Origin: Escherichia phage BEBK14
Reading direction: 5' to 3' (one strand)
DNA length: 50,853 nucleotides
Sequence record: MN158214.1
Position numbers and translations under genes: made by a program. Below the pieces are notes generated by a model that did no database searches, had not been told where the DNA came from, and worked only from the letters and a program-made list of their open reading frames with translations. This document shows, in pieces, positions 2,026 to 49,512 of the stretch (positions are counted from its first letter, which is position 1; the number at the start of each line of letters is the position of its first letter).

Positions 2026-2042
2026 TTAACAAAAAGTGCTGT
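2026..2042 (-). promoter_or_regulatory. 17-bp box copy (extended form)
   Basis: followed on minus strand by hairpin, CATAAT (1999..2004) and TTTCATCGAAACGAA. Confidence 0.5.
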
Positions 2043-2299
2043 TAGTGGATCATTCCGTGCTGAAAATTCCACGAATCGACAAATTCTTGCATGTCATTTC
2101 TGATCTGTTCATGCCATTTTTCAAGCGGGAGTTTTTTTGTCTCCTCAAAGCTCATATCCAATGCGCTTGAAAATTCCCACGGATCGCAATCAATCATCTT
2201 TTTCACGTTAGGGTTTTTATCAAGCGCATCGCAAACCATAGCGCGATAAAGCAACCATTCGCCACACTCATTTAAATAAACGCTTCTTTCTTTTTGCAT
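2042..2299 (-). CDS. hypothetical protein
   Basis: 85-aa ORF, co-oriented and adjacent to neighbouring minus-strand genes. Confidence 0.4.
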   Translation of the reverse strand: MQKERSVYLNECGEWLLYRAMVCDALDKNPNVKKMIDCDPWEFSSALDMSFEETKKLPLEKWHEQIRNDMQEFVDSWNFQHGMIH

Positions 2300-2303
2300 G
2301 ATA

Positions 2304-3005
2304 TTAACTCCGCTTTCTTGCCCGACGCTCTGCCACGGAAGGGCAAATGTCGCTGATTTTAACGTATCGCGTTTTCTGATGCTCGCCTTCTTTCAGTTCA
2401 CGCATGATGAAAATAACGCTTCCTTTGTTGTTGCCCTGTACTGGTTTACCTGTAAGTGCGGAAGTAAACGCCAGGCGTCCGGTGCGTGAATATTCTGTTC
2501 CATCCTCTTTGTAAACTTCTCCAGTGATCCAGATTATTTCCGCCGCGTGCTGTTGCGCTTCATAAAACCATCCTGTTGATGTGTCGCATGGTAAAAGCAT
2601 GTCGATCTGGTTGTTGTGCTCCATCTGCTCAATCGCTTTCTTAACGAATGGCGTGATGTTGCTGTATGGTGGATTAAGCCAGATGTGCTTATTGCTACCC
2701 CACCAACGCTTTAAGCAATTCGTTTCCTTGCTGTAGAATTTTTCGCATACAGCATTATCTTCGCTTGCTGCCGCGTCGATGTCATAATCACCATATTCGC
2801 TTTCCATCCATGCGACAAGCTCTGATGGCGTAGACCATAAATCGCGCACAACGTCCGGCGTATTGCTTCCGTTATATCGGTTGCCAGTCACTTTGAAATA
2901 TTGATTTGACTTAACTGCCTGGTAATGGCCTCCGGTCGCTAGGGCATTACCTACAAACGTTTCTCGTTCGATTTGTTCAAAGCTGATTTCAATTTCTTTC
3001 TTCAC
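2304..3005 (-). CDS. dam: DNA N6-adenine methyltransferase (phage Dam family)
   Basis: NPPY catalytic motif (WLNPPYSN) and overall resemblance to phage Dam-type MTases; apparent GTG start. Confidence 0.7.
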   Translation of the reverse strand: MKKEIEISFEQIERETFVGNALATGGHYQAVKSNQYFKVTGNRYNGSNTPDVVRDLWSTPSELVAWMESEYGDYDIDAAASEDNAVCEKFYSKETNCLKRWWGSNKHIWLNPPYSNITPFVKKAIEQMEHNNQIDMLLPCDTSTGWFYEAQQHAAEIIWITGEVYKEDGTEYSRTGRLAFTSALTGKPVQGNNKGSVIFIMRELKEGEHQKTRYVKISDICPSVAERRARKRS

Positions 3006-3064
3006 GTTAATATCCTCGCGATTGCCTTGTTTATTTGATTATGGCTCAATCCATCGCGCCTGTT

Positions 3065-3081
3065 TTAACAAAAAATGCTAT
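3065..3081 (-). promoter_or_regulatory. 17-bp box copy
   Basis: CATAAT at 3039..3044, 22 bp downstream; box contains TAG stop of 3078..3497. Confidence 0.5.
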
Positions 3082-3497
3082 TTCAGCATGTAATCAACTG
3101 CGATCATGAATTGCTTGTAACCGTAGGTGACGGCAGCGAAGCCTCCAAGCTCACGCACGCGGCGCAAGAATGCTTTTTGCTCTTTGCTGACCGGAGAAGC
3201 CTTCCCCTTGCCGGACTTGTTGACGCGCTTCATTTCAATAGCCGCAAACGGGTAGCGGCCTTTTAATCCAATCAGGATGATGAAGTCACTCACACCCTTA
3301 ACGAGTCCGGCTTGCTGATCCATCATTGCAGTGGCGATTCCCTTGTCTCCTTCGTTTTTCGTATGCCAGGCCAGCAATTCAGGATGAGCATAAGTCACCC
3401 ATTGAAACGCACCTATCTGGTGCGATTCTTCTTTTAGTGTATCTGTTGGATCTCTTTCGTAAAACTCCAGATAGTCACCTTTATCAGTCATTGCCAT
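3078..3497 (-). CDS. VRR-NUC domain nuclease
   Basis: C-terminal segment resembling VRR-NUC (GKGKASPVSKEQKAFL...); immediately downstream of helicase as is typical. Confidence 0.5.
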   Translation of the reverse strand: MAMTDKGDYLEFYERDPTDTLKEESHQIGAFQWVTYAHPELLAWHTKNEGDKGIATAMMDQQAGLVKGVSDFIILIGLKGRYPFAAIEMKRVNKSGKGKASPVSKEQKAFLRRVRELGGFAAVTYGYKQFMIAVDYMLK

Positions 3498-5523
3498 AAT
3501 TAAACTCCTTCTTGTATAGATTATCTTCGCCCTTACTCGTCTTGCGGTGAGTTACCATCGACGGCTGCATGATGTGATTCGCATATTGCATGATTTTTCT
3601 TGCATTGCGATAGCTTGCCACCATGCCAGCAATACGGCGATCCGGTATATGCTTTAACGCGACTCTACGCCATTTATCCCTGCAAATCTGGCTTTCTGAT
3701 TCAGGGAAAAATATCTCTCGCGCCCTGAATGTGTCGATGCCGTCGGAAAGCTCATAATTGAAGATGATCCCTTTCTGATTTTTCGTCATGTCAACCGAGA
3801 AAGATTTTACCTGGAACCAGTCGTTTTTTGTGTAGTGCTTACCGCTTAACTTTTCGTTAGGGTCAATAAGCGACACATCGCAATGCCTGCACACCCTGGC
3901 CGCAATATCATTCTTAGTACCACAGCCGTGATGGATAACCTTTCTGGTGCGCTGGTCTATCCGATCCTCGCATATCTTGTATTTGAAAAACCATTCGCAT
4001 CTGTTTCCGTTTTCGTCTACGTGCATACAACGTCGAGCGTAATAGCTGTTTAACGTCTTGCATACAGGGCAAGGCTTCGGATCTTTTCCGTTTTTGAATC
4101 TCTTCTGATGCTGCGCCTGCTCCAGTATCGGATCGAAATAAAGCTCTCCTAACTCGTCCATCGTGCCGGAAAAGTCCAAAACAAGATGATCGTCTTTATG
4201 AAAGCCCTGCTCTTTGTGCCACTTTTTAAGCAGTCGCATACCGCGACCTAAAAGCTGAATCAACAAAGTTAGCGATCCAATCTTACGCAGAATAACTGAC
4301 GTATCCCAAAACGGCACGTTAACGCCAGTGGTTAGCGCCTGCACCTGGAAGATGTATTTTACTTTCCCCTCGTATGCTTCTTTCAGCCATTCTTTACGCT
4401 GATTGTCGCCAGTCTTGCCAGTGATGATCCGGTAAGTCGTGCCAGGAGGCAACGCTGCCGCCGCCTCTTTACAATGTCTTTCACCTGCACATGTCACCAA
4501 TACGCCGTTACGGTTTTTACATATTTCGTGCACCTTCTCCATGATGCGCTTAGTCATAGTGGCTTCTTCATGGATCTTCTGTTCCATTTTGCGAAGCGTT
4601 TTCGCGTCAAAATCTGCAACTCCGTCCTCGCTGGATGCCTCGAACTCTGACAGGTCATAACCGAGATCGCCAACGTCGCCAAAATTGGTTGGCACAACCG
4701 AACCGAATTTGATCAGATAGTTGGTATCTATGTTAGTAACCTGTTCTCGCCAAAATCCTTTCTGTTTTTTATCTTCAACCAGGATTGGAACCACGCCGCG
4801 AAATTCCGATCCAGTCATGCCAAATATACGCAATTCGTGACCGTATTCCTTCCTGCAACGACGCATCATTTCCATGATGATAACGGTGTACTGTGTCCTG
4901 CCTGTTCCTTCCATTGGCAAGCCATCTTCCCCAATCAGGAATTCATCACACTCATGGGCGTTCGTGATGTCGTAATCTGGATTCTTTACTTTCTCGCCCT
5001 TTTTTGTCGTCATTTGAATGAGCGATTCGTCATTCTCTATCGCGTCGGCAAGGTCTTCCCAATCCACCTGATGACACTCGTCAATCCCGATAACGTGCGG
5101 CGCGTAGTCTCCAAGTGACTTAAACAGGCCGTTAACTACAGTTCCCTCAGAACCAACAACAATAGGAAAGTATGCGCTTTTGGTTTTCAGTCCAGCACAA
5201 TAAATGGAATTTGGCACGCCGAGATTTGTGATCTCCTCTGAATCCTGATCCACAATTTCAGCCTGTCGCGCCAATACCATCATTTTCAAGCCCATTTTCC
5301 GGCATTGCGCCGCAACCATTGCAAACATCAATGTTTTGCCTGCTGATACTGATGCTTTAATAAAGAATGGATGCTGATAATTGCGCATACGCTTTGCGAT
5401 CTCAGTGTATGCAACAACCTGGTAAGGATATGGCACAATATCGCCAACCGTGAAACGCTCCTGTATTTTTCGGATCGTTTCTTCACCTAAAGCGGCTATC
5501 TGCTTTTCAATATTAGGAATCAT
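3484..5523 (-). CDS. SF2 DNA helicase with Zn-finger-like cysteine cluster
   Basis: Walker A (SVSAGKT), DECH box (GIDECHQ), C-terminal CxxC clusters. Confidence 0.75.
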   Translation of the reverse strand: MIPNIEKQIAALGEETIRKIQERFTVGDIVPYPYQVVAYTEIAKRMRNYQHPFFIKASVSAGKTLMFAMVAAQCRKMGLKMMVLARQAEIVDQDSEEITNLGVPNSIYCAGLKTKSAYFPIVVGSEGTVVNGLFKSLGDYAPHVIGIDECHQVDWEDLADAIENDESLIQMTTKKGEKVKNPDYDITNAHECDEFLIGEDGLPMEGTGRTQYTVIIMEMMRRCRKEYGHELRIFGMTGSEFRGVVPILVEDKKQKGFWREQVTNIDTNYLIKFGSVVPTNFGDVGDLGYDLSEFEASSEDGVADFDAKTLRKMEQKIHEEATMTKRIMEKVHEICKNRNGVLVTCAGERHCKEAAAALPPGTTYRIITGKTGDNQRKEWLKEAYEGKVKYIFQVQALTTGVNVPFWDTSVILRKIGSLTLLIQLLGRGMRLLKKWHKEQGFHKDDHLVLDFSGTMDELGELYFDPILEQAQHQKRFKNGKDPKPCPVCKTLNSYYARRCMHVDENGNRCEWFFKYKICEDRIDQRTRKVIHHGCGTKNDIAARVCRHCDVSLIDPNEKLSGKHYTKNDWFQVKSFSVDMTKNQKGIIFNYELSDGIDTFRAREIFFPESESQICRDKWRRVALKHIPDRRIAGMVASYRNARKIMQYANHIMQPSMVTHRKTSKGEDNLYKKEFNYGND

Positions 5524-5581
5524 AACTGTCTCTTTTAATAAGCCATTAGGCGTGTATAATACACACGTTCAAAAGCTATTT

Positions 5582-5598
5582 TTAACAAAAAGTGCTAT
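5582..5598 (-). promoter_or_regulatory. 17-bp box copy in divergent region
   Basis: TATTAT ~21 bp downstream toward helicase; opposite face abuts RBS/ATG of 5609 gene. Confidence 0.45.
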
Positions 5599-5608
5599 GA
5601 GGTGCAAA

Positions 5609-6085
5609 ATGAAAGAAAAGCGAATCGCGGCCTATACTGGTGAGATTGACAAGAGAACATTGAACGGCAACAACGGAACGCGACGCGGCAAGGACAAGAA
5701 GCCACGCAAGCCGCGCACCGGATATTACATACTGAAAGAAGAAGTAAAAGCCGGACTGACCGCTCGCCTTGATATTCTTCTGGAGTATTTCGGAGGTGTG
5801 GCAAATATGGCTCGTCGATTGGGAGTATCCCAGCAAACTGTAAATATGTGGCGCAAGCGCGGGATGATTTCAGCGATGGGCGCACAACGCGTGCATAATG
5901 ACTACAAATATAATGGCTGTAAAGGCTATCGCGCATCATTCTGTCGCCCGGATCTAAAATTCGACTCAAACGGTAAGCCGCTTGTTACACGTTGCGAACG
6001 TCGTGAGATGTTGCGAGTGGTAACGATGCGCGATTATGAACCTGGCGGAATATTTTACAAAGAACCAAAAAGCACAAATAGCTAA
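5609..6085 (+). CDS. HTH DNA-binding protein (putative transcriptional regulator)
   Basis: ATG 5609 follows box copy and GAGGTG RBS; HTH-like segment GVANMARRLGVSQQTVNMWRKRG. Confidence 0.5.
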   Translation: MKEKRIAAYTGEIDKRTLNGNNGTRRGKDKKPRKPRTGYYILKEEVKAGLTARLDILLEYFGGVANMARRLGVSQQTVNMWRKRGMISAMGAQRVHNDYKYNGCKGYRASFCRPDLKFDSNGKPLVTRCERREMLRVVTMRDYEPGGIFYKEPKSTNS

Positions 6086-6142
6086 AGTTAATTGCCTGGC
6101 GTGGTTTATCATTGCCAGGCTTTTTCTTGTATGAGGTTTACA

Positions 6143-7054
6143 ATGCACTACGACAAAGACGAAGTTTTACCGCGTATGCTTGGAATGTGGCAAACTGCAT
6201 TAATGAAACTATGCAATGCGCCTCAATCTTTCTTTAATGGCAAGCATCAACCGTGCCTGTATTGTGGTGGCAAAGATCGCGCTCGTTGGACTAACCAACT
6301 CGCAAAGAAAGGTGATGGCGGCAATATCTGCAACGTATGCGGTAACGATAGCGGGATCGGGTTGTTTATGCGATTGCGCGGGGAAAGCTATAGCGAAGCA
6401 ATTAACACGCTGGGCGACTGGCTCAATCTCGTTCCGGTCGAAGTGGTGGCAAAGGCTAACAAGATAGCGTCGCGCTCGTCAGGCTACAATTTCGGGAAGC
6501 AGGCCAGCCATGAATGCTGTGAAAGAGTAATGGCAAAGACGCTTAAATTTGATCGCACTCCTTTAAGCGTATTTGAAGGAATCTACCCGCCTGATGATGG
6601 TCATTACGATTGCGGCGTTAAGGATGGGCGATACATTCACGCGCTTCCGTGCCGACTTGTTCACGAAGACGGCGTGGATGATGAGATGTGCAATATTCTC
6701 TTTATCACCGAGGAAGGCGATAAATCATTTCTGGCAAAGGATTACACGCGCGGATCGGTTGTTGTAACTGGTAGCACAGATAAGACGATCTATTTGTGCA
6801 CTGACTGGGTAAATGCTCAGCATGTGCACCTTGCGACGGGGCAAGAAGTATGGACGTGCTACAATAACTACAATCTTGAGATGGTTGCCCACAGATACAA
6901 AGGAAATCGAAAGATGCGCGTCGTATGCCATAAAGATGATCGGGATGTAATAATCGCCGCCGATGAAAGAAACCTTGATGTTATGCTGCCGATTGGTGGA
7001 AACTTCAAAAATGGCATTGAGAAAAAACTTTACAAGCCTGAATCGCTTTTATAA
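6143..7054 (+). CDS. DNA primase (primase Zn-ribbon + Toprim-like)
   Basis: PCLYCGGKDRARWT...CNVCGN zinc ribbon typical of P4/T7-type primases; downstream acidic Toprim-like motifs; GAGG RBS before ATG 6143. Confidence 0.6.
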   Translation: MHYDKDEVLPRMLGMWQTALMKLCNAPQSFFNGKHQPCLYCGGKDRARWTNQLAKKGDGGNICNVCGNDSGIGLFMRLRGESYSEAINTLGDWLNLVPVEVVAKANKIASRSSGYNFGKQASHECCERVMAKTLKFDRTPLSVFEGIYPPDDGHYDCGVKDGRYIHALPCRLVHEDGVDDEMCNILFITEEGDKSFLAKDYTRGSVVVTGSTDKTIYLCTDWVNAQHVHLATGQEVWTCYNNYNLEMVAHRYKGNRKMRVVCHKDDRDVIIAADERNLDVMLPIGGNFKNGIEKKLYKPESLL

Positions 7055-7118: not shown

Positions 7119-7149
7119 GCCTGCAAAACTGCTATTCTCAATGTTGTCA

Positions 7150-7166
7150 TTAGCAAAAAGTGCTAT
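7150..7166 (-). promoter_or_regulatory. 17-bp box copy (variant TTAGCA; no -10 partner)
   Basis: between terminator 7095..7118 and RBS/ATG of fibre gene; orientation opposite to flanking genes. Confidence 0.35.
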
Positions 7167-11305: not shown

Positions 11306-11381
11306 AATTAACCCCTTATTTGTTAACCTGCGCGGCGAATTATAACACCGCGCTAATCATTTGTTTAGCTATTTGTGCGGT

Positions 11382-12880: not shown

Positions 12881-12897
12881 ATAGCACTTTTTGCTAA
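12881..12897 (+). promoter_or_regulatory. 17-bp box copy (variant TTGCTAA)
   Basis: TATAGT at 12918..12923, 20 bp downstream; precedes lipoprotein gene. Confidence 0.5.
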
Positions 12898-12954
12898 ACT
12901 CGATGTTCAAGATCTTGTATAGTTGGAAACAACAACAACTAAGGAGATACAAAG

Positions 12955-17724: not shown

Positions 17725-17779
17725 GTTTTTTTTACCTTTTGTGCTATTTGCGTGTTTACATTATACGGACGAAAAAAAA

Positions 17780-23907: not shown

Positions 23908-23924
23908 ATAGCATTTTTTGTTAA
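23908..23924 (+). promoter_or_regulatory. 17-bp box copy
   Basis: between major-tail terminator and G-like gene RBS; TAGATT 22 bp away on plus strand (antisense to late genes). Confidence 0.35.
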
Positions 23925-23967
23925 AAGTCTGAATGACTTGTTTGATAGATTCTACAGGAACGAAAAA

Positions 23968-27656: not shown

Positions 27657-27673
27657 ATAGCACTTTTTGTTAA
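27657..27673 (+). promoter_or_regulatory. 17-bp box copy
   Basis: upstream of capsid-gene hairpin/RBS; TATTCA 22 bp away on plus strand. Confidence 0.35.
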
Positions 27674-27700
27674 AGGTGCAAATCTATTTTGTGGTATTCA

Positions 27701-28543
27701 TTAAGTGCCTACTGTTTTCCTGAACACTATGTCAAACTGATCAGCAACTCCAGAACCGTCGTTTGCAGTCCAGTTAACATTAACATGACCACCTACTCCA
27801 GTAGGAACTACAAGACCAGTGCGACTAACGCTTGCAACCTTTGGATCTTGCTCGTTTGTAATCGTCCACTGCCCCGTTTTGTCGTCAGCCCATGTTGGAA
27901 CAACGGTTACTTTTAGCTGAACGTTGTCAATTGTTTCTGTTCCCTCTACATAACCATTTTCGGCCTCAATGATCGCACCAGTAAGAAGGTATTTTCTATG
28001 ATGAAGCGGCGTTATTCTGACTCCGACTATGTTCATTGTTTCATCAAACTTGTAAAAGTCACCAGTAAAAATCCAGCCATCGACGATTTCATCCCCATCA
28101 CTACTTGCTACAAAGCCATCATTGTTAACATAAACAAGATCGCCATGTTCAGGCGCAGACTCAATCGTTTGAGTTAAGCACCATACAACCCCTCTTGTTA
28201 AAATGTTGATAGAATCTCCTTCCTTATAGTCAGAGTATCCGTCTTCCTCGTTAACCGTTGTCGTGATATTGCTCCTTATGGCAACACCAGCAACCACAGC
28301 ATCACCCTCTTTGTGATCAACAAATATGTTGTAACCTTCAACTCTTTCTTTAAAGAAAACAACCTTTCCAGCAATGATGGATTCAGAACCGCAAACTCCA
28401 ACTCTTTCTTTAAAGAAAACAACCTTTCCAGCAATGATGGATTCAGAACCGCAAACTCCAGTGCCATCAATGTTGTAGCGAGTAGAATCAACCAGGCATC
28501 CAGGACAGGAAAGCCCCATAACAGATGAGTAATCTTTAGCCAT
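27701..28543 (-). CDS. structural (head decoration-like) protein with C-terminal Ig-like domain
   Basis: N-terminus paralogous to 28595..29104; Ig-like C-terminal segment; contains 60-bp tandem duplication. Confidence 0.5.
   Translation of the reverse strand: MAKDYSSVMGLSCPGCLVDSTRYNIDGTGVCGSESIIAGKVVFFKERVGVCGSESIIAGKVVFFKERVEGYNIFVDHKEGDAVVAGVAIRSNITTTVNEEDGYSDYKEGDSINILTRGVVWCLTQTIESAPEHGDLVYVNNDGFVASSDGDEIVDGWIFTGDFYKFDETMNIVGVRITPLHHRKYLLTGAIIEAENGYVEGTETIDNVQLKVTVVPTWADDKTGQWTITNEQDPKVASVSRTGLVVPTGVGGHVNVNWTANDGSGVADQFDIVFRKTVGT
28341..28460. repeat. perfect 60-bp tandem duplication (2 copies), in-frame within 27701..28543
   Basis: 28341..28400 identical to 28401..28460; duplicates 20 aa GVCGSESIIAGKVVFFKERV. 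Confidence 0.9.
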
Positions 28544-32280: not shown

Positions 32281-32300
32281 GATTATTCTCCTAATAAAAA

Positions 32301-32320
32301 AGGCTGGAAAAATCCAGCCT
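32301..32320 (-). terminator. hairpin + T-run between terminase and portal
   Basis: AGGCTGGAAAAATCCAGCCT preceded by A-run on plus. Confidence 0.5.
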
Positions 32321-32335
32321 TGATTATACTTTCTT

Positions 32336-32352
32336 TTAGCAATTCGTGCTAT
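32336..32352 (-). promoter_or_regulatory. 17-bp box copy (variant CGAATTGCTAA)
   Basis: contains TAG stop of terminase; TATAAT 32323..32328 only 7 bp downstream, then hairpin + T-run, then portal RBS. Confidence 0.45.
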
Positions 32353-34535: not shown

Positions 34536-34537
34536 CG

Positions 34538-36780: not shown

Positions 36781-36837
36781 GTTCCGGCCTCCTCTGTTGT
36801 CGATGCGCATATAATACAAAACCAGCCGAAGCTGGTT

Positions 36838-36854
36838 TTAACAAAAAGTGCTAT
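36838..36854 (-). promoter_or_regulatory. 17-bp box copy
   Basis: contains TAG stop of 36851..37147; hairpin 36821..36836 then TATTAT 36811..36816. Confidence 0.5.
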
Positions 36855-38120: not shown

Positions 38121-38178
38121 TGTTGATTCCTATGTTTACTGAACGGGGTAAATTATAGCGGAGCATTGCGCCCCGCGT

Positions 38179-38195
38179 TTAGCAATTCGTGCTAT
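38179..38195 (-). promoter_or_regulatory. 17-bp box copy (variant CGAATTGCTAA)
   Basis: contains TAG stop of kinase gene; TATAAT at 38152..38157, 21 bp downstream. Confidence 0.5.
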
Positions 38196-39551: not shown

Positions 39552-39609
39552 GATGTTTTCCTCTTTCGTTGTTGATGGGCTTACTATACCGCAAGCCCGA
39601 TAATCTGTT

Positions 39610-39626
39610 TTTGCAAAAAGTGCTAT
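39610..39626 (-). promoter_or_regulatory. 17-bp box copy (variant TTGCAAA)
   Basis: TATAGT at 39583..39588, 21 bp downstream. Confidence 0.5.
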
Positions 39627-40320: not shown

Positions 40321-40330
40321 ATATTAATCC

Positions 40331-40731: not shown

Positions 40732-40787
40732 AGTTTTATCTCCTTCGTTGAAAGTGAGGCCATTATACCTGGCCCCACATTTGAGTT

Positions 40788-40804
40788 TTAACAATTCGTG
40801 CTAT
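40788..40804 (-). promoter_or_regulatory. 17-bp box copy (variant CGAATTGTTAA)
   Basis: abuts TAA stop of 40805..41770; TATAAT at 40761..40766, 21 bp downstream. Confidence 0.5.
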
Positions 40805-42021: not shown

Positions 42022-42240
42022 TAACCCCTTTCACATAAATAACCGTTTAATCTTTGGTGACGGGCTTCACTTCGTCGGTAGCCTCAGTTCAGTGACCTAT
42101 CTAGCGTTCTGCCTGGTGGCGAGTGTGATAGTTCTGGCCTCACGGTTGGGAATCCTGACACTTCGATCAAGCCCCTGCGTCGCTCCTCTCCCGCAGCAAT
42201 CCTTGCCGCCCGTCTATGTGTGTATTATGCCTGGTTATCG
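42022..42240 (-). ncRNA. GC-rich ~200-nt untranslated leader / candidate structured RNA
   Basis: lies between -10-like CATAAT (42224..42229) and gene 41839..42021; no ATG-initiated ORF; GC-rich with multiple inverted repeats. Confidence 0.3.
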
Positions 42241-42250
42241 TTTTTGAGTT

Positions 42251-42267
42251 TTAACAAAAAGTGCTAT
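42251..42267 (-). promoter_or_regulatory. 17-bp box copy
   Basis: contains TAG stop of lipoprotein gene; CATAAT 42224..42229, 21 bp downstream; followed by long GC-rich leader. Confidence 0.5.
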
Positions 42268-42527: not shown

Positions 42528-42528
42528 T

Positions 42529-42990: not shown

Positions 42991-43021
42991 TGTCATTCCT
43001 CCTGTTGGTCAGTTGCAGGCC

Positions 43022-43430
43022 ATTATAAGTGCTATTTTATGCGTGTCAATGTTTATTTTGTCCGTATAACGTTCGCGTCCTGTTCGCGTTGCCGAAGTTT
43101 TGAGAGAATCACTACATAACCACATGATTTGCAATAAGTTTTTACCGCTTGTTTTCTTTCTGTTCGCGCTGTTAGCGCAATATCGCAATAAAAGTATATA
43201 TACATACTCATTCCACCAGGCGCGCAACTATCCATATATATACCAACAAAGCGACACCGCAACCATCACATACCACACTAACAACGCTAACAAGAAATAA
43301 CACATAAATATATACATAAATAAATATTCTTTATTTTCAATGTATTATAAGGGATTTATTTTGTTTTTTGCGTTCGCAATACATTGAAAAACAGCGCGGA
43401 AACATGTCGCCCTGAAACGCGAACACGCAC
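43022..43430. other. AT-rich divergent control region B with GTTCGCG repeats (possible origin/operator region)
   Basis: GTTCGCG at 43071, 43082, 43162; CGCGAAC at 43418; ATACATAAATAAATATTCTTTATTTT block; no convincing ORF over ~720 bp. Confidence 0.55.
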
Positions 43431-43643
43431 GAACAAAATAAACAGCTTCTGTTTGCTGACGCCACCAGGACGAGGCGAGAGGGCAACTACTTTCTATACA
43501 CCCCGCCCCACATGATTAATCACATACGCAATCAATCGAAAAACCTGGTAAACGCATATCACACTAACCAATTTAACAGTTAAGCAACTTATTCCGATTA
43601 TTCTTTGAGCGTGGAATAACTGGAATAATGCACCAGGCATGGA

Positions 43644-43660
43644 ATAGCACTTTTTGTTAA
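43644..43660 (+). promoter_or_regulatory. 17-bp box copy
   Basis: TACATT 43682..43687, 21 bp downstream, then ACACACATCGAAAC; precedes first rightward early gene. Confidence 0.55.
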
Positions 43661-43722
43661 AACCGAATCATTCTGATCGGGTACATTACACACATCGAAA
43701 CAAACCGCTCAGGAGATAGCAA

Positions 43723-43995
43723 ATGAACATCAGTAAAACCACTTTCAATTTCGCTAAGCGTCACGGTCTGGATCTGACTGTTGAGAACTTAGGCGATGTT
43801 CTGCAACTCTGCATTTGGGAAGCAGATAACGATTGCGAGTGGCTTTGCTCTTATCGTATCAACTACGATTGCTTGACCTGGCACGGCAATATCTATCTGC
43901 CGCAAGAGGTGAAAGAAGAATTGCCAGCGACTATCAACAACGAAGTTTTCTTGCGCCGGGTGCTGAAATTTATCAGTGAGGAGATCAAGAAGTAA
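43723..43995 (+). CDS. hypothetical protein
   Basis: first gene of rightward early operon; GGAG RBS. Confidence 0.45.
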   Translation: MNISKTTFNFAKRHGLDLTVENLGDVLQLCIWEADNDCEWLCSYRINYDCLTWHGNIYLPQEVKEELPATINNEVFLRRVLKFISEEIKK

Positions 43996-44261
43996 TGGCG
44001 GTGATTACCGAAAATGATTTAGATCTGGCGGAGGCATTTTGCAGGGCGGCCAGGTCTAACCTGGATGTGACTACTAAATTTATTCCGGTGCGCCCACTCT
44101 TTTCATGTGCGCCCGTGAATAAACCGACTCGCGTAATGATCGTGATTGAAGGTGATGGCCTGTACGCTGAAAAGACTTTCCACATCAGCAACATTAAAGG
44201 CCGCGCTGATTTTATCAATGATGTTTGCTTATTGCAGGAGAAGAAAAAATGCTTAATGTGA
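43995..44261 (+). CDS. hypothetical protein
   Basis: TAATG coupling with upstream gene. Confidence 0.4.
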   Translation: MAVITENDLDLAEAFCRAARSNLDVTTKFIPVRPLFSCAPVNKPTRVMIVIEGDGLYAEKTFHISNIKGRADFINDVCLLQEKKKCLM

Positions 44262-44461
44262 TCAAGAAAGCCCGTGAGATGGGTATGGATGTTTCAATCT
44301 GCGACGCGTCCGCGCGTCACCCGTTAGCGCCGGAAAATATGGTTGTAGTCATTGTGCATAATCACCGCTATGAGTGCCGTGCGATGTTTGATAAGCATGA
44401 TAAAGAGGCGCAACGCTGTTTTATCAACGAAGTTTGCGATCTGTATGGGAGAATCAACTGA
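44249..44461 (+). CDS. hypothetical protein
   Basis: GGAG RBS before ATG 44249. Confidence 0.4.
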   Translation: MLNVIKKAREMGMDVSICDASARHPLAPENMVVVIVHNHRYECRAMFDKHDKEAQRCFINEVCDLYGRIN

Positions 44462-44727
44462 TGGCACGTATCAATGCACCTATTCCAGTAAAGCGCAAAG
44501 CACGTTTGCTCAATAAAGGATGTTACGCCCTGATGCCTGCATTTAAGGATCGCACCTTTCCGGTTATCGTTAACGTGTCTCACGTAAGCCGTAGCGGAAA
44601 CCTGGTATTCGTTAAAGGTGAAGATCTGGCGGCGCTTGGATTCTATGGCGGTGTTTACGGCGAACCGCTCGGCTTCTGGCTTGTAGATCCGTTAACTGGC
44701 GAGCGTGAAATCGAATTTCTGGACTAA
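44461..44727 (+). CDS. hypothetical protein
   Basis: stop TAA abuts box copy. Confidence 0.4.
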   Translation: MARINAPIPVKRKARLLNKGCYALMPAFKDRTFPVIVNVSHVSRSGNLVFVKGEDLAALGFYGGVYGEPLGFWLVDPLTGEREIEFLD

Positions 44728-44744
44728 ATAGCACTTTTTGTTAA
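44728..44744 (+). promoter_or_regulatory. 17-bp box copy
   Basis: TATATT 44766..44771, 21 bp downstream; abuts TAA stop of upstream gene. Confidence 0.5.
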
Positions 44745-44802
44745 AAACGATGTGCGCCTGAATGGTATATTACATCCATCGACAACAAACGAGGATTTAA
44801 AG

Positions 44803-45000
44803 ATGGAAAATCAGGTTGATGTTAAAGTTGTTAAGCGCGACAAGTCTCACGAAAAAGGTTTGTTTAAGAAAGGTGCTGAAATCACCATTGACCTTGATGA
44901 TATGGAGGCGTACCACTCAGGGCTAACTTGGAACGTGCGCAAATGTGAAAACGGCATGTTCAAGTTAAATGGCTTTGAAACATACATGGAGATCATCTAA
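44803..45000 (+). CDS. hypothetical protein
   Basis: GAGGA RBS before ATG 44803. Confidence 0.4.
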   Translation: MENQVDVKVVKRDKSHEKGLFKKGAEITIDLDDMEAYHSGLTWNVRKCENGMFKLNGFETYMEII

Positions 45001-45212
45001 TGGCAAAGCAATTAAAACTTAAATGCGTTGAAACTTACGACTCGGTTTGGCGTTTTACGCTAGGCAAAGAATACACTCTAAAGGGCGATCTCAAATATGA
45101 TCCGCATGTTATTTCTGATAACGGCCATCACCTTTATTTGATGGAAGACAACGACTCATATATTGGCGCTGGAGTGCAAGGTCATAAATTTAAGCTGGCA
45201 AATAAAAAATGA
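45000..45212 (+). CDS. hypothetical protein
   Basis: TAATG coupling. Confidence 0.4.
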   Translation: MAKQLKLKCVETYDSVWRFTLGKEYTLKGDLKYDPHVISDNGHHLYLMEDNDSYIGAGVQGHKFKLANKK

Positions 45213-45320
45213 GGCTGGTAATATTCCGCAACGCCTGGATGTTGGCTGTTGCAAATGACCATTACGGCGGCGGCGGTAAACGCGCCGCTCTACACTCTTA
45301 CTTTAACTGAGGAAAATATA

Positions 45321-45560
45321 ATGACTGCTAAATCAATCAAGGTTGAAAATATTCTTGCTGCTGTTAAGGCGCACCACCGCTTAATTGTTCGACTTGATAA
45401 AACAAGCGGAATCAGCCAATTAACCATCACTGAGGGTAAAGGCGGTTACACTGTTGGCATTCATCCAGGCGGCAAGCTGCGAAAATTCAGCGAGGCCGGA
45501 TTAAAAGAAATGCTGAATGAATACTCTTTTTACATTCAAAGTTGGAAGGATGCAAAATAA
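45321..45560 (+). CDS. hypothetical protein
   Basis: GAGGAA RBS before ATG 45321. Confidence 0.4.
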   Translation: MTAKSIKVENILAAVKAHHRLIVRLDKTSGISQLTITEGKGGYTVGIHPGGKLRKFSEAGLKEMLNEYSFYIQSWKDAK

Positions 45561-45605
45561 TGCTCCACGGGCGCCATAATGCGCCCACAAATACAGGAAA
45601 CAACC

Positions 45606-45716
45606 ATGAATAAGTTTTTAGATATTACTTTTGCGTGCGTTTCTGGAAGCATTGGATTGGCGTTAATCGCTGCTGGCGCTGCTTTGATTTACATTTCTTT
45701 TGAGGTGATTTCATAA
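45606..45716 (+). CDS. hypothetical small membrane peptide (36 aa)
   Basis: AGGAAA RBS; single hydrophobic helix; TAATG coupling to next gene; below track cutoff. Confidence 0.25.
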   Translation: MNKFLDITFACVSGSIGLALIAAGAALIYISFEVIS

Positions 45717-45940
45717 TGAGTCAGGACGGATTTTTTGAACGCCTTCAAATGGCAGAAGATGCCGGACTAAATAAAGAGGCGGCGCTTGAAGTTGCATATA
45801 AGATTAAGACTCTTGATGAGGCGCTAGGTGATATGGATATGAATCTTGAATCAAGCGCAATATTTGCAGATCCCACTATGATTGTTAATGATTGTGGATG
45901 CGATTTCGATCCTAGCTGTCCTCGCTGTTTTCCGTTTTGA
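45716..45940 (+). CDS. hypothetical protein
   Basis: 74-aa acidic ORF. Confidence 0.35.
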   Translation: MSQDGFFERLQMAEDAGLNKEAALEVAYKIKTLDEALGDMDMNLESSAIFADPTMIVNDCGCDFDPSCPRCFPF

Positions 45941-45950
45941 GGTAATGACG

Positions 45951-46655
45951 ATGTATAAAGGTTTAATATTCTCCCTATTTGATGGGTCTGGTAAAGCCGT
46001 TAAAGATTGGGCTGATAATGGCTATAAGTGCATTTGCTTTAATGCTGACGGTGGCGATCACGGTGATTACCAGTCAGTGCGCATAAAGCATGAGAATATC
46101 GAATATGTTAACGTCTGGATTGACGATGCTTTTTATGTTAAGGCAATAAATAATGAGTGGGGCAATCCTGATTTTATTATGGCCTTCCCACCATGCACTG
46201 ACCTTGCAAATAGCGGATCTCGCCATTGGGCTAAAAAACGCCTTGAGAATCCATCGTTCCAGGATGATGCCGCCGACACTTGCAGAATCGCGGCTGATAT
46301 AGCTGATTATTTCGGTGTTCCTTACATGATCGAAAATCCGGTTGGCAAGTTGTCAACGTTATGGCGAAAGCCTGATTATACGTTCCATCCGTGCGATTAC
46401 GCTGGCTATCTGCCGGAAGATGATAAGCATCCAGACTTCCCTGATATTATTCCGGCGCGTGATTGCTACTTTAAGAAAACATGCCTTTGGACTGGAAACG
46501 GCTTTATCGTTCCACAGAGAAAACTGGTATTGCCAACCGAGAAGGATAACCCAGGCTGGGCTAAAACTGGTGGCAAATCATCCAGAACAAAGATGATACG
46601 CTCCCTCACTCCGCGAGGATTTGCTCGCGCCGTATTTGAGGCAAACTCAAAATAG
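45951..46655 (+). CDS. putative DNA (cytosine-5) methyltransferase-like protein
   Basis: motif I-like FSLFDGSG, PC motif (PPCTDL), ENV-like (IENPVG); short for a complete C5-MTase. Confidence 0.45.
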   Translation: MYKGLIFSLFDGSGKAVKDWADNGYKCICFNADGGDHGDYQSVRIKHENIEYVNVWIDDAFYVKAINNEWGNPDFIMAFPPCTDLANSGSRHWAKKRLENPSFQDDAADTCRIAADIADYFGVPYMIENPVGKLSTLWRKPDYTFHPCDYAGYLPEDDKHPDFPDIIPARDCYFKKTCLWTGNGFIVPQRKLVLPTEKDNPGWAKTGGKSSRTKMIRSLTPRGFARAVFEANSK

Positions 46656-46668
46656 CACTTTTTGTTAA
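46652..46668 (+). promoter_or_regulatory. 17-bp box copy (extended form)
   Basis: contains TAG stop of MTase-like gene; hairpin 46672..46690, CATAAT, GTTTCAACGAAAAC. Confidence 0.55.
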
Positions 46669-46727
46669 AACGCCCGACCTTGAGTCGGGCATAATGCGTT
46701 TCAACGAAAACAACTGGAGAAAATCAA

Positions 46728-47114
46728 ATGAAAGTTATCCGCAATTCCGACAACAAATTGATGAACGGTCGCTATAAAACTGTTTACACAAAAGTAGCTG
46801 GCAGCGACGACGTGATCGAGATGGAGGAATTTCAGGTTAAGGCGCTGGCTAAGGGCGCGAAGTGGGAATCAGCCAACCAGGACGAATACCGCACTATCAA
46901 GGCAAAGACGATTCTATGTACGTTTGTTGATCACCGGATGGCAACCAAAAAAAGTTTTAAAGCTGGAAAGCGTTACCAGGTCGAACAGGGTCGCGCTCTT
47001 GGGGCAGTTGCTGGTTACGTCTTCGATGAGGACGGCGACCGATGGACGCTCTACCGCGAGGAGGTCGGATTCTCTGCTGGTTACTCTTATCTTTTTGAGG
47101 CCAAATATTCATGA
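46728..47114 (+). CDS. hypothetical protein
   Basis: preceded by extended box element. Confidence 0.45.
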   Translation: MKVIRNSDNKLMNGRYKTVYTKVAGSDDVIEMEEFQVKALAKGAKWESANQDEYRTIKAKTILCTFVDHRMATKKSFKAGKRYQVEQGRALGAVAGYVFDEDGDRWTLYREEVGFSAGYSYLFEAKYS

Positions 47115-47332
47115 TCCGCAGTGAATACCGATATAAAGTAACTCACGCCACAACTGCAACTTTCAAGCCTGGCGATATTGTCAGGCCAATAAAGAGAACT
47201 GCGGAAGGTTGGCTGATTGGGTATTCATATCACAAGTCGCTTTACTTCACTTTTAAGGATGATGTAACCGGAGAATGCTACAGCGACCGCCAGCCGGATC
47301 GCCTACTGGTTGCAATCGAGCGGATCAAATAG
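47111..47332 (+). CDS. hypothetical protein
   Basis: ATGA coupling; stop TAG inside box copy. Confidence 0.4.
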   Translation: MIRSEYRYKVTHATTATFKPGDIVRPIKRTAEGWLIGYSYHKSLYFTFKDDVTGECYSDRQPDRLLVAIERIK

Positions 47333-47345
47333 CACTTTTTGACAA
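47329..47345 (+). promoter_or_regulatory. 17-bp box copy (variant TTGACAA)
   Basis: contains TAG stop; TTGACA within box, TAACAT 47367..47372, 21 bp downstream. Confidence 0.5.
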
Positions 47346-47399
47346 ATAAGGGTAGTATTGGTGCGGTAACATACACTGCACCAAATAGGAGTCGATTTA

Positions 47400-48983
47400 A
47401 TGAATTTTTCATTTGAAACAAGTCAGTTATCACCGAAACAAATCATTGAAACCGCCGAATCTCAAGGTATTTCCCCTGTTCGTGTATCCATTCAGGCCAA
47501 CGGATACCGCCAATCTTCAAGCTATTGGGGTCAGGTGGAAGATATTAACGGCGGTAACGACCGCTACCCTGTCATTTCACTTGGGAATGATGTTGATGTA
47601 GTTGGTAAGCTGGCGCGCAATCTTGCGAGATCTGTTCAATTCCCTGAATCATCGGCCTACATGCACTTTATCGGATGTATTTCTGCCGCTATGCTTGGTC
47701 GATTCACAGTTGACTACCACGGAACAGATCAGCCGACCGCGCTTTACGTTGTGACAAGCCAGCCTCCGTCGGCAGGTAAATCCGCGATTAACAGTCTGGC
47801 TATTGCTCCTATGGTTGCAGAGGTTGATCGCATCAACGAGCAACGCAAGAAAGATCGAAAAAAGATACAGGCAAAACTTGCCGGACTACTAAAGGAGATG
47901 AAAAGCGAACGCTCCGGCGCAGATATGGAGATTCTATATCAAGAAAAAGAAGATCTGGAAGAAAAACTAAGCAAACTTTGCGATGTTGTTTTCCCTGTTT
48001 CCGACACAACGCCTGAGGGATTGGCAAAGATAAATAACAGGCAAGGCAACTTCGCGGTTATTTCTGATGAAGCAACCAGTATTAACAGTCTGCTTGGTCT
48101 GACTTACGCTAATAGCGAGCGCAAAACTAACAGCGAACTTGTGTTAAAAGCATGGGATCACGGCCATGTTTCTATCGCCCGTTCTAATGCAGACAATAAC
48201 ATGAGTTTTTTTGCGCTTGGATGTATGAGTGTTATCGCCCAGGATGAAACCATTAATGGCATCATGGATGCAGGATCTCGTGGCATCGGTGTAAGCGAGC
48301 GTTTTCTACTGGTGCGCGAACAGCCGTTAATCGGTACGCGTGTATTTGTGGATGAGAATGGTGATTCAACTTACGAACCAGTAGACGGTGAATTGAAAGC
48401 GCAATACTTTCAGTTGGTGCATAACATTATGAGCGAAATTAACGTTTCTCTGAAAGTTAGCCGTTCTGCAATGCGCGTGCTGAACATTGCACGCCAGGAT
48501 ATGGAACCGCATCTTGCCGACGGCGGAAAGTATTCGCATACGATGCTACGCGGTGCGCTGGGTAAAATGGATAAGCAGGTGATCCGCATTGCTGCCGTTC
48601 TGCATGTGATACGCAATTGGTTTAATCCTGCTGGATACCCGCAAAAGTCTAGAGAGATTGACGTTGACACGATGCAAGAAGCCTTGCTGATGTTCCATGA
48701 ATTGAGCAAAACGTATATCAGCGCGGCGAACGCGTCAGGCTATGCTGGTGATGATGCCGAGATGTCAAAACTGATTGAGTTAATCACCCGCCACGGTAAG
48801 GCAAATAAAGGCGTATTGAATGTCCGCGCTTTGTATGAGGCAGCACGCAAGGTAAAACCTTTCCTGGGGCAAGCTGGCGTGATGAAGCGCATAGAATCGC
48901 AACTGCTTCCGATGCTTGAGCAAAAAAACTACGTTTGTGTTATTAATGGTGTTATTTTTGTGAATCCTGTGTTAATGGGGTAA
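47400..48983 (+). CDS. P-loop NTPase, DUF3987/YfjI-like
   Basis: Walker A-like QPPSAGKS and Walker B-like VISDE; 527 aa. Confidence 0.45.
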   Translation: MNFSFETSQLSPKQIIETAESQGISPVRVSIQANGYRQSSSYWGQVEDINGGNDRYPVISLGNDVDVVGKLARNLARSVQFPESSAYMHFIGCISAAMLGRFTVDYHGTDQPTALYVVTSQPPSAGKSAINSLAIAPMVAEVDRINEQRKKDRKKIQAKLAGLLKEMKSERSGADMEILYQEKEDLEEKLSKLCDVVFPVSDTTPEGLAKINNRQGNFAVISDEATSINSLLGLTYANSERKTNSELVLKAWDHGHVSIARSNADNNMSFFALGCMSVIAQDETINGIMDAGSRGIGVSERFLLVREQPLIGTRVFVDENGDSTYEPVDGELKAQYFQLVHNIMSEINVSLKVSRSAMRVLNIARQDMEPHLADGGKYSHTMLRGALGKMDKQVIRIAAVLHVIRNWFNPAGYPQKSREIDVDTMQEALLMFHELSKTYISAANASGYAGDDAEMSKLIELITRHGKANKGVLNVRALYEAARKVKPFLGQAGVMKRIESQLLPMLEQKNYVCVINGVIFVNPVLMG

Positions 48984-49378
48984 TGATGTTCATTCTGGAT
49001 CTCTACAGATGGTGTGAGTCTTACGACTGGTTTACTCGTCAGCACATTGCAAAATTTATCTATCAGCACAGAGAATGTGAACGCCTGGCGAAGCAGGCCG
49101 GATTCACCCCGCGCATGTTCGCTTCCATGCTATCGAAAGAGTTTTGCGCAAGAATGATGGGCGCTGGTTATCTGGATGGCGTTGAAGGTAGATTTTGGTG
49201 CATTGACGGATCTGCCCGTAGGCCGTTCGGATTCGAATTTTACACCTTTGAGGGAATGCAAAATGAATGGATAAGGGATATGGCACGGATAGGAGAAATG
49301 AGTGATGATGAACTCTTTGGAGCAAAGTCTAATAGACAAGATATTGAAATTTTGCGCCGTAAATTCAATATCACATGA
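48983..49378 (+). CDS. hypothetical protein
   Basis: 131-aa ORF coupled to upstream gene. Confidence 0.4.
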   Translation: MMFILDLYRWCESYDWFTRQHIAKFIYQHRECERLAKQAGFTPRMFASMLSKEFCARMMGAGYLDGVEGRFWCIDGSARRPFGFEFYTFEGMQNEWIRDMARIGEMSDDELFGAKSNRQDIEILRRKFNIT

Positions 49379-49499
49379 TGATTTCATTCATGCGTTACTT
49401 ACGCTGCTTTTATCGGATATGCGTGCCTTTGACACTTCCGAACACAATTTATGTGATGATGATGGTGTCTTGCTGGTTACGGTGAAGCGGATGGAATAG
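49305..49499 (+). CDS. hypothetical protein
   Basis: AGGAGA RBS; stop TAG inside box copy. Confidence 0.3.
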   Translation: MMNSLEQSLIDKILKFCAVNSISHDDFIHALLTLLLSDMRAFDTSEHNLCDDDGVLLVTVKRME

Positions 49500-49512
49500 C
49501 ACTTTTTGTTAA
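49496..49512 (+). promoter_or_regulatory. 17-bp box copy (extended form)
   Basis: contains TAG stop; hairpin 49516..49534, TATATT, GTTTCATCGAAACGAA. Confidence 0.55.

Follow-up and report, generated by a model that had tools for sequence, protein, structure and literature searches.

What is the function of a 17-bp box (ATAGCACTTTTTGTTAA) that recurs in the intergenic gaps of a T1-like phage genome, in most copies with a -10-like hexamer at a fixed distance from it? The window, by which we mean the whole stretch of 50,853 nucleotides analysed here (Escherichia phage BEBK14, record MN158214.1), holds all, or nearly all, of the genome of a T1-like siphovirus (a Warwickvirus), with a coding density of about 90%; its identity to Escherichia phage BabyEgg is 99.6% in the 8-kb segment compared, and that to Jahat_MG145 (Drexlerviridae, Tempevirinae, Warwickvirus) is 98%. 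The best-supported reading of our results is that the box corresponds to a high-quality E. coli-type marbox in the register of a class II promoter and, judging from sequence, we consider it fairly probable that the early promoters of T1-like phages depend on the host activators MarA, SoxS and Rob. We found no earlier assignment of this repeat as a marbox in the literature that could be searched.

The box and its likeness to the marbox

In the preliminary description of the window, at least 18 dispersed intergenic copies of the box had been counted, and this count held: 16 matches were found at no more than three mismatches, versus 0.23 expected and a maximum of 2 in 100 shuffles, and all 18 coordinates were recovered when four mismatches were allowed. 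A scan with a position weight matrix (PWM) built from related phages gave 18 strong matches (17.7-32.4 of 33.5 bits), every one of which is intergenic or overlaps a stop codon only, in a genome that is 90.4% coding; two of them were flagged as 'coding' on account of tiny automatically called open reading frames (ORFs) that are not in the Jahat_MG145 annotation. Tiny ORFs called in BabyEgg correspond to window positions 12773-12922 (+) (49 aa) and ~23900-24010 (-) (35 aa), and overlap the boxes at 12881 and 23908; they have no Jahat counterpart, and are probably over-calls. The PWM also added three weaker copies (6069+, 11362- and 17728-), the first two of which have the complete promoter architecture and lie upstream of the primase and erf genes. 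The claim that the box itself supplies the TAG stop codon of the upstream gene in nine copies was confirmed as well, four coding bases lying within the box, and at 2026, 40788 and 44728 a TAA stop is adjacent to the box or runs into it; "stop-plus-promoter cassette" is an accurate description of these units. Relative to the flanking late genes, the copies at 7150, 23908 and 27657 are inverted, and no in-register -10 element is found at 7150 and 32336.

Written as a 20-mer, the box reads ATAGCACnWWTTGYTAAAAC. A marbox is an asymmetric 20-bp site to which the AraC/XylS-family activators of enterobacteria, namely MarA, SoxS and Rob, and RamA in Klebsiella and Salmonella, bind as monomers. When the window 20-mers are compared to the E. 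coli marbox consensus AYNGCACNNWNNRYYAAAYN (PMC2064960), they agree with it at 12-14 of its 14 specified positions, with 13 of the 18 strong copies at 13-14 and the other five at 12, and the phage core GCACTTTTTGTTAAA agrees with a second published consensus, GCAHWWWWTGYYAAA (PMC6900184), at 15 of 15 positions. With no model other than this E. coli consensus, a scan of the window returned 16 matches at 13/14 or better, versus a mean of 1 and a maximum of 5 in 200 Markov simulations; 14 of these are copies already listed, one is the erf promoter (11362-), and the one that remains is probably due to chance. The marbox of micF (ACAGCACTGAATGTCAAAAC) and the window copy at 2026 (ACAGCACTTTTTGTTAAAAC) are identical at 16 of 20 positions, and that of mar (ATGCCACGTTTTGCTAAATC) is identical to a phage consensus copy at 15 of 20. 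Taken together, the two published consensus forms cover all the conserved positions of the box with the exception of A2.

The repeat has been seen before. German, Kropinski, Misra and co-workers, who reannotated phage TLS in 2024, reported a 21-nt direct repeat (DR), aaATAGCACnnnTTGnTAAAA, co-oriented with transcription, located ~76 nt from start codons and divided into TTT, GAA and AAA subtypes, noted its presence in T1, Rtp and Rogue1 as well, and listed a stoperator, an enhancer-binding site and an UP element as candidate functions (PMC11447400). The window box belongs to this TLS/T1 family: the ATG follows the start of the box by 50 nt and a further ~21-29 nt of leader, and the element is the same in its T/G/A subtypes, its co-orientation, its ~76-nt distance to the start codon and its odd copies (DR7 and DR8 in TLS). 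The marbox match, the fixed -10 element and the class II register, which our analysis adds, were not noted in the TLS paper, and our full-text search for the motif found no description other than that one.

Conservation of the box at orthologous gene boundaries of T1-like genomes, which the preliminary description had proposed to look for, was seen in T1, TLS and Pantoea phage AAS23, with the promoter architecture retained. T1 has 25 sites, TLS 18 DRs and AAS23 nine, and the T1 sites 5' of the helicase, Dam, gene 18, erf and primase genes correspond to the window copies at 5582, 3065, 2026, 11362 and 6069, respectively. T1 also keeps all three copies that are inverted in the late region, before the genes for the major capsid protein, the tape-measure chaperone and the tail fibre, and the copy that overlaps the ribosome-binding site (RBS) of tail fibre J. 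The box is invariant across the window phage, T1 (Tunavirinae), TLS and AAS23, while phage proteins are 53-60% identical, AAS23 being the most distant family member (portal identity, 53.5%); the hosts of the family are all Enterobacterales. Single matches in T4-sized and other contigs have no in-register -10 element and look like chance occurrences. In AAS23, where marboxes are fewer, the most over-represented 12-mer family belongs to a second repeat, TATTATTTTTGCGGTAGAT, with 4-5 copies, which may be a different promoter or regulatory site.

Promoter geometry and hairpins

An exact-pattern scan of IMG/VR yielded 120 stretches, almost all from T1-like contigs of 46-52 kb, and 370 unique instances of the box were aligned on it. 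Box positions 0-16, as well as A17, are near-invariant in this alignment, with variation only at positions 7-9, which read TTT, GAA or AAA between constant flanking GC positions, and at position 13 (C or T). Positions 20-32 show no conservation, and are followed by T35 G36 n T38 A39 T40 A41 A42 T43, in which a -10 hexamer is preceded by G or TG at -14/-15 (G at -14 in 77% of the family instances, and TG in ~47%). Seven bases past the hexamer lies a conserved C49 A50, which resembles the CA of a transcription start site (TSS), and then an A/C-rich leader (CATCGAAAC or CATCGACAAC), an RBS and the ATG; the predicted leader is 21-29 nt long in most copies, CA-rich and unstructured. The best -10 element begins at frame position 38 in 248 of the 370 instances, and a good one is found at positions 37-39 in 302, compared to 1-25 at control offsets. 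In the window itself, the fixed distance of ~22 bp first described between the box and the hexamer proved to be 21-22 bp from TTGTTA to the -10 element in 15 of 18 copies, and the exceptional copy at 32336, for which a nearby TATAAT had been reported, indeed has it at 7-8 bp.

If A50, on the basis of the conserved CA, is taken as +1, the 20-mer extends from -50 to -31 and is centred at -40.5. GCAC, which is recognition element 1 of the marbox, would then occupy -47 to -44, and YTAAA, its recognition element 2, would cover the usual site of the -35 hexamer. Most in-register window copies have a gap of 18 bp between the 20-mer and the -10 element, the others one of 17 bp, and 16 window promoters are in forward orientation, with GCAC distal and YAAA proximal to the -10 element. 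A -35 hexamer at a spacing of 16-18 bp is lacking, as the best match averages 2.6/6 versus a background of 2.47. The sites do not qualify as canonical sigma70 promoters either, since TTGNTA sits 21-22 bp from the -10 element, a distance that excludes a canonical -35/-10 pair. As for what kind of promoter this is, the preliminary description had left several options; that of a factor-dependent or host regulator site is the one our results favour, and its argument from the 22-bp distance is supported as well, but an UP element is not. Nor do the results support TTGTTA as a -35 hexamer; it is the TGYYA part of recognition element 2.

This geometry is that of known class II mar/sox/rob promoters, defined by a forward marbox that overlaps the -35 region (PMC6900184). 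The literature places the class II site between -36 and -55; in Salmonella, forward sites cluster at -41 in class II promoters that have no recognisable -35 element (average, 1.9) (PMC10268841), and RamA binds at about -41 in micF (PMC8811837). In the structure of Rob with RNA polymerase (RNAP) at micF, Rob contacts -47G and -45A of GCAC, and region 4 of sigma70 is kept from the -35 element (PMC9178005). The micF promoter of E. coli K-12 consists of ACAGCACTGAATGTCAAAAC, 18 bp, TAGAAT and seven more bases to the annotated start, and the same procedure, with -10 elements assigned by PWM, gives 18 bp for sodA and nfo and 17 bp for fumC. Like these promoters and lpxC P2, the phage promoters would have a forward, asymmetric 20-bp marbox over the -35 region, GCAC at -47 to -44, 17-18 bp to the -10 element and no canonical -35. 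Unlike most host class II sites, those of the phage are far nearer the consensus and near-identical to each other, number ~16-25 per 50-kb genome and form units with stop codons and hairpins; that activators bind to them is putative.

Most window copies carry a GC-rich hairpin between the box and the TSS. The mean minimum free energy (MFE) of the box-to-TSS region is -8.4 kcal/mol, versus -4.1 for shuffled and -4.3 for random genomic sequence, and 52% of these regions reach -9 kcal/mol or lower, compared to 5-8% of controls. Two registers occur, one in which the hairpin lies within the 18-bp gap and the T-rich -10 element forms its tail, and a commoner one in which the stem spans about -24 to -1 and the TAT of the -10 element is at the apex; a column-pair analysis on all sequences, unselected, gave i + j = 75 as the preferred register. 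Several of the in-gap hairpins are annotated as rho-independent terminators in the T1 record, and three window spacer hairpins (36838, 38179 and 49496) passed a terminator scan. Among in-gap hairpins, 26 of 68 have at least 5 T in the next 8 nt. The hairpin at 6094-6120 is followed by a clear T-run, and the commoner class with the -10 element in the loop has no U-tract. The hairpins, 5' of the predicted TSS, would be missing from transcripts that start at the promoter, and their targets could only be DNA or upstream transcripts that read through; at 6094-6120, where the -10 element is in the loop of a clear terminator, upstream transcripts alone would terminate. We favour the possibility that the hairpins terminate, insulate or stabilise the 3' end of the upstream transcript. 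A terminator on the antisense strand, composed of the hairpin and TTTTAAC from the box, is conceivable, but it would fit the in-gap hairpins only and would have no obvious use.

Candidate activators and competing explanations

If the box is a marbox, it has to be asked which protein would occupy it. A search with phmmer, using E. coli MarA against the 739 stop-to-stop ORFs of the window, drew a blank (best E = 0.7), and a phage-encoded MarA-like activator was rejected on this ground. Host activators are instead suggested by this lack of a homologue, together with a box that stays invariant while phage proteins diverge and hosts that are all Enterobacterales. Since Rob is constitutive and abundant (PMC9178005), it would be the most likely basal activator, with SoxS and MarA as possible boosters under stress or upon infection; soxS is in fact induced by infection with P1vir, phiX174 and lambda (PMC12795941). 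By analogy with the solved complexes of Rob, SoxS and RamA at micF, the activator would sit on the -35 region, touch region 4 of sigma70 and the C-terminal domain of the alpha subunit (alpha-CTD), and recruit the host RNAP to promoters otherwise devoid of a -35 element, so that transcription would start at the conserved CA, ~50 bp from the start of the box. The 18-bp spacer, free of sequence constraints, is reused for GC hairpins, and each early gene block would then be one compact cassette with a stop codon (often the TAG in the box), a marbox, a hairpin, a -10 element and a leader.

Several points weigh against this reading. A at position 2 is invariant in the phages and unspecified in the marbox consensus, and at position 18 most phage copies carry A instead of the Y of the consensus, as does micF. 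The good -10 hexamers with G(-14) or TG(-15,-14) could allow activity without an activator, and for sodA, nfo and fumC it was a PWM, not cited TSS data, that placed the -10 element. Rob is reportedly for the most part sequestered and inactive without inducers, and yet T1 grows fast in plain broth. Two helix-turn-helix (HTH) proteins of the phage are possible binders, and four or five copies (7150, 23908, 27657, 32336 and 17728) do not fit a simple activation model. The searchable literature, finally, gave no report of binding, TSS mapping or a rob, marA or soxS phenotype for T1-like phages, and searches for these three genes in phage screens and for TSS or RNA-seq data on T1 gave nothing useful.

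The alternative that deserves most attention is that the box serves as operator for a regulator encoded by the phage, be it an activator or a repressor ('stoperator') that shuts early promoters off, and that its likeness to a marbox reflects convergence or coincidence, which we regard as unlikely. Two candidate binders are conserved throughout the family, a 158-aa Cro/YdaS-like HTH protein (5609-6085, +) and a 372-aa protein with an HTH like that of sigma70 region 4 (336-1454, -); one copy of the box lies in the divergent regulator/helicase region, as would suit autoregulation, the inverted late copies would suit a repressor, and stoperators and enhancer-binding sites are what the authors of the TLS study proposed (PMC11447400). 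The box even contains a partial dyad, TAGCA-N5-TGYTA, but its GCA/TGC half is inherent to the marbox consensus, and the best-conserved positions are asymmetric (C6 versus T10, A0 versus A16, and the A15-A18 tract). This asymmetry, together with the strict orientation of the box to the -10 element, fits a monomer with two HTH motifs and not a dimer; a dimeric Cro/cI-like operator was rejected, since TAGCA/TGYTA alone is symmetric, while flanking positions are asymmetric and orientation is fixed. The distance to the -10 element is also fixed, and a match of 13-14 of 14 to the host consensus in the exact register of micF would be improbable by chance. Were the regulator an activator, moreover, it would have to be made before the earliest genes could be expressed. 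Pfam searches gave only weak single-HTH matches for the two candidates, and the comparison with T1 (57-59% identity) was non-discriminating. The 336-1454 protein, for which annotations give either 'DNA repair exonuclease' or a remark 'sigma 70 region', is 57% identical to its T1 counterpart, has its HTH at the N terminus (a weak Sigma70_r4_2/HTH_28 match at residues 11-46) and carries metallophosphatase-like motifs (GDxxH and GNHD) in the remainder.

Mycobacteriophage L5 stoperators, cited in the TLS paper (PMC11447400), resemble the phage sites in being many, short, asymmetric, intergenic and co-oriented; they differ in that they are bound by a phage repressor, block elongation, belong to a temperate phage and have no fixed relation to a -10 element, whereas T1-like phages are virulent. 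In the T4 middle promoters, a MotA box, with sigma appropriation by AsiA, likewise replaces the -35 element upstream of a good -10 element, in many copies across early and middle genes; that box is centred at -30 and read by the phage's own MotA/AsiA, and the box studied here is centred at -40.5 and matches the site of a host factor. A precedent for phage promoters wired to a global regulator of the host is found in alphaproteobacterial phages with CtrA sites in their promoters, even though regulator, host clade, proposed purpose (lytic deferment) and site architecture are all different there (PMC9437464).

It might also be argued that no factor is needed, and that sigma70 RNAP alone uses these promoters, with the -10 element and its G/TG doing the work and the box acting as UP-like or curved DNA, or TTGNTA as a displaced -35 element. 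We find this improbable, even though the host polymerase serves T1 development and UP elements were raised in the TLS study (PMC11447400), and even though the box is A/T-rich and the G at -14 and the TG are as frequent as given above. A TTGNTA-to-(-10) distance of 21-22 bp is beyond the range of sigma70, and recognition of an A-tract in the minor groove by the alpha-CTD would leave the invariant G3, C4, C6 and G12 unexplained. It is the middle of the box (TTT, GAA or AAA) that varies, not the flanking GC positions. An UP element would be an A/T-tract at about -40 to -60 that the alpha-CTD reads and that has no invariant G/C positions; with G3, C4, C6 and G12 near-invariant (1.7-2.0 bits) around a variable A/T middle, it was rejected. 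Class II marbox promoters, in addition, have the same appearance and are nonetheless activator-dependent.

Very improbable, in our opinion, is an RNA-level or recombination element that involves no transcription factor, namely a terminator or processing cassette or a mobile module whose repeats would provide homology for the shuffling of genes. In T4-type phages, Arbiol et al. reportedly described such modules in 2010 as promoter-early stem-loops (PeSL), which likewise repeat an intergenic early promoter and a stem-loop beside small early genes and may aid shuffling, but place the stem-loop upstream of a strong early promoter of the usual sigma70 kind, whereas in the phage cassettes the hairpin is inside the promoter, the activator site is what is conserved and there is no sequence relationship. 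The strong enrichment of hairpins, the marking of several as terminators by the T1 annotators, the ~80-nt likeness of the cassettes at 2026, 46652 and 49496 and the small accessory ORFs that are flanked all speak for such an element. On the other side, the box is invariant while hairpin sequence and register vary, it lies 5' of the hairpin and hence provides no U-tract, the fixed -10 element, TSS-like CA and leader indicate a promoter, and the sites extend beyond shuffled accessory genes to orthologous boundaries of core genes (helicase, Dam, erf and primase); besides, this explanation is compatible with the marbox and not exclusive of it. By inspection, a sigma54 promoter (TGGCAC-N5-TTGCW) was rejected for its AG instead of GG, an AG-N8-GC versus GG-N10-GC arrangement and the sigma70-type -10 element that follows, and boxes for IHF and DnaA for poor matches; the AraC site araI1 (TAGCATTTTTATCCATA) shares only the first half and has a TCCATA B-box that the phage lacks.

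T1-like phages are among the commonest coliphages, notorious contaminants in laboratories and frequent candidates for therapy, and TolC is the receptor for some of them. Both the T1 genome (2004) and the TLS reannotation (2024) left very few sigma70-type promoters and a puzzling conserved repeat, for which a class II marbox would provide a testable mechanism of early-gene transcription. It would predict that infection is modulated by rob, marA and soxS and by their inducers (bile salts, salicylate, paraquat and some antibiotics), would make a virulent phage dependent on a stress regulon of its host, with a bearing on phage-antibiotic interactions, and would offer, ready-made in nature, a series of compact and very strong marbox promoters joined to terminators. 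In a much bolder version, to which we give little credence, the whole early programme and part of the early-to-late switch would be wired to MarA/SoxS/Rob: ~16-25 near-consensus marboxes per genome would capture the activator-RNAP complex to fire early genes, the conserved inverted copies, which overlap or face the late promoters of the major capsid, tape-measure chaperone and tail fibre genes and that of the regulator gene, would hold these off or drive antisense transcription for as long as the activator lasts, and replication would titrate the activator as a copy-number timer. Were this the case, replication-driven titration would flip early promoters off and late ones on, and infection would respond to bile salts, oxidants and antibiotics, the same signals that raise TolC, the receptor of TLS.

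Individual cassettes and the late-region copies

Coordinates of predicted promoters and atypical copies in the window, with strand; -10 elements and start sites are predictions, and fractions give agreement with the E. coli consensus
Feature	Box 20-mer	Gap and hairpin	-10 element	TSS	Gene or location	T1 orthologue; remarks
1992..2042 (-)	ACAGCACTTTTTGTTAAAAC, 2042..2023	18 bp; hairpin GCCCGGCAtttTGTCGGGC	CATAAT 2004..1999	~1992	small ORF 1787-1966	39976, same ACAGCAC variant
3031..3081 (-)	ATAGCATTTTTTGTTAAAAC	18 bp	CATAAT 3043..3038	~3031	Dam methyltransferase 2304-3005	38953
5549..5598 (-)	ATAGCACTTTTTGTTAAAAA	17 bp	TATTAT 5561..5556	~5549	helicase 3484-5523	
6069..6120 (+)	AAAGCACAAATAGCTAAAGT, weak, 'A-type'	18 bp	TATCAT 6107..6112, in loop of terminator hairpin GCCTGGCG...TGCCAGGC, then TTTTT		primase 6143-7054	35976, overlaps annotated terminator
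11332..11381 (-)	ACCGCACAAATAGCTAAACA (14/14)	17 bp	TATAAT 11344..11339		Erf-like recombinase 10652-11305	31443
12881..12930 (+)	ATAGCACTTTTTGCTAAACT (14/14)	17 bp	TATAGT 12918..12923		ORF 12955-13224	
36804..36854 (-)	ATAGCACTTTTTGTTAAAAC	terminator-like hairpin AAACCAGCttcgGCTGGTTT	TATTAT 36816..36811			
38145..38195 (-)	ATAGCACGAATTGCTAAACG (14/14), 'G-type'	hairpin GCGGGGCGcaaTGCTCCGC	TATAAT 38157..38152		ORF 37725-38120	
39576..39626 (-)	ATAGCACTTTTTGCAAAAAC		TATAGT 39588..39583, in loop of hairpin GGGCTTGCggtataGTAAGCCC ending at -1		ORF 39252-39551	
40755..40804 (-)	ATAGCACGAATTGTTAAAAC	17 bp	TATAAT 40767..40762, in loop of hairpin GTGGGGCCA...TGGCCTCAC		ORF 40513-40731	
42217..42267 (-)	ATAGCACTTTTTGTTAAAAC	18 bp	CATAAT 42229..42224		ATG 42021	~195-nt leader
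43644..43694 (+)	ATAGCACTTTTTGTTAAAAC	18 bp	TACATT 43682..43687		first gene of rightward early arm 43723-43995	
44728..44778 (+)	ATAGCACTTTTTGTTAAAAA	18 bp	TATATT 44766..44771		ORF 44803-45000	
46652..46702 (+)	ATAGCACTTTTTGTTAAAAC	hairpin GCCCGACcttgaGTCGGGC	CATAAT 46690..46695		ORF 46728-47114	
47329..47384 (+)	ATAGCACTTTTTGACAAATA		TAACAT 47367..47372, in loop of hairpin TTGGTGCGGT...ACTGCACCAA		DUF3987 helicase/primase-like gene 47400-48983	
49496..49546 (+)	ATAGCACTTTTTGTTAAAAC	terminator-like hairpin GCCCGGCTtatAGTCGGGT	TATATT 49534..49539		ORF 49572-49790	
27657..27707 (+)			TGgTATTCA 27692..27700		antisense into upstream scaffold-like gene	inverted; forward, complete class II-like unit
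23908..23958 (+)					between major tail protein terminator and tape-measure chaperone gene	inverted
7147..7166 (-)			none in register			34902+; inverted
32300..32352 (-)			no class II -10 in register		between terminase large subunit and portal genes	atypical forward copy
17728..17747 (-)	ATAGCACAAAAGGTAAAAAA, degenerate				directly 5' of tail fibre J start codon (17724)	25021; also TLS DR8

Some of the early cassettes listed in the table have peculiarities of their own. Three of them (1992-2042, 46652-46702 and 49496-49546) are alike over ~80 nt, with a shared GCCCGRC hairpin and a TTTCATCGAAACGAA-ATGAGGAAA leader, which suggests that entire promoter cassettes have been duplicated or have undergone gene conversion. 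The -10 element of the helicase promoter, TATTAT, reads as TATAAT on the + strand, and the box stands reverse-complemented in the leader of the divergent Cro/YdaS-like gene (ATG 5609), an arrangement kept in T1 (36444), TLS (DR11) and Pantoea phage AAS23 (26644). Window positions 5549-5615 contain face-to-face promoters, and the palindromic -10 element is also present in T1 (36444 region). The long leader at 42025-42217 (-) is GC-rich, contains only a 28-aa ORF with a TTG start and differs between BabyEgg and Jahat; as a structured RNA it was rejected, with z = +1.3 and no Rfam match.

The copies in the late region are harder to accommodate. At the capsid boundary, the reverse complement of the 27657 copy gives, on the late (-) strand, the spacer and the TGcTATCAT extended -10 element of a putative capsid promoter, TTTGCA-17-TATCAT, downstream of which lie a hairpin with a U-run, an RBS and the ATG of the major capsid gene; inverted copies occur at the same boundary in T1 (15067-, with TGcTATTAT), TLS (DR7) and AAS23 (5950-). 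The forward -10 element of the 23908 copy, TAGATT (23946..23951), overlaps by 3 bp a promoter-like sequence of the late strand, TTGCGC-17-TAGAAT, in whose leader the reverse-complemented box lies just 5' of the RBS (T1 orthologue, 18831-). On the + strand at 7147..7166, the primase terminator is followed by TGcTATTCT, which resembles an extended -10 element, then by the box in reverse complement, an RBS and the tail-fibre ATG. At 32300..32352, TATAAT lies 4 bp past the 20-mer, and is followed by a terminator-like hairpin (AAGGCTGGAttttTCCAGCCTT) with a U-run, an RBS and the portal ATG, while in the copy at 17728 AAGG appears to serve as the RBS. It is only speculation that, through arrangements of this sort, the same factor may antagonise promoters of opposite orientation.

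Terminator-like hairpins with U-runs, GAGGCTGTTACTTGTTAACAGCCTTTTTTAT and AAGGCTGGATTTTTCCAGCCTTTTTTAT, lie directly 5' of the RBS of the capsid and portal genes, respectively (27600-27680 and 32270-32325, -), and there is no room for a promoter downstream of them; a TSS just 5' of these hairpins would yield mRNAs with a 5'-terminal stem-loop. In the scanned 34000-50853 region, the sole perfect sigma70 consensus promoter (TTGACA-16-TATAAT, 12/12) is found at 43022-43049 (-), in the large intergenic region between the divergent early arms, and aims into the leftward arm, of which 42529-42996 is the first ORF; this promoter is probably the immediate-early one that needs no activator. The start codons annotated for BabyEgg CDS0065 and CDS0018, which map to 5568 and 36810, lie upstream of or inside the predicted -10/TSS, and alternative starts with a good RBS are available at 5523, where the Jahat annotation also begins the gene, and near 36780, so that gene starts such as these two can be corrected using the promoter model.

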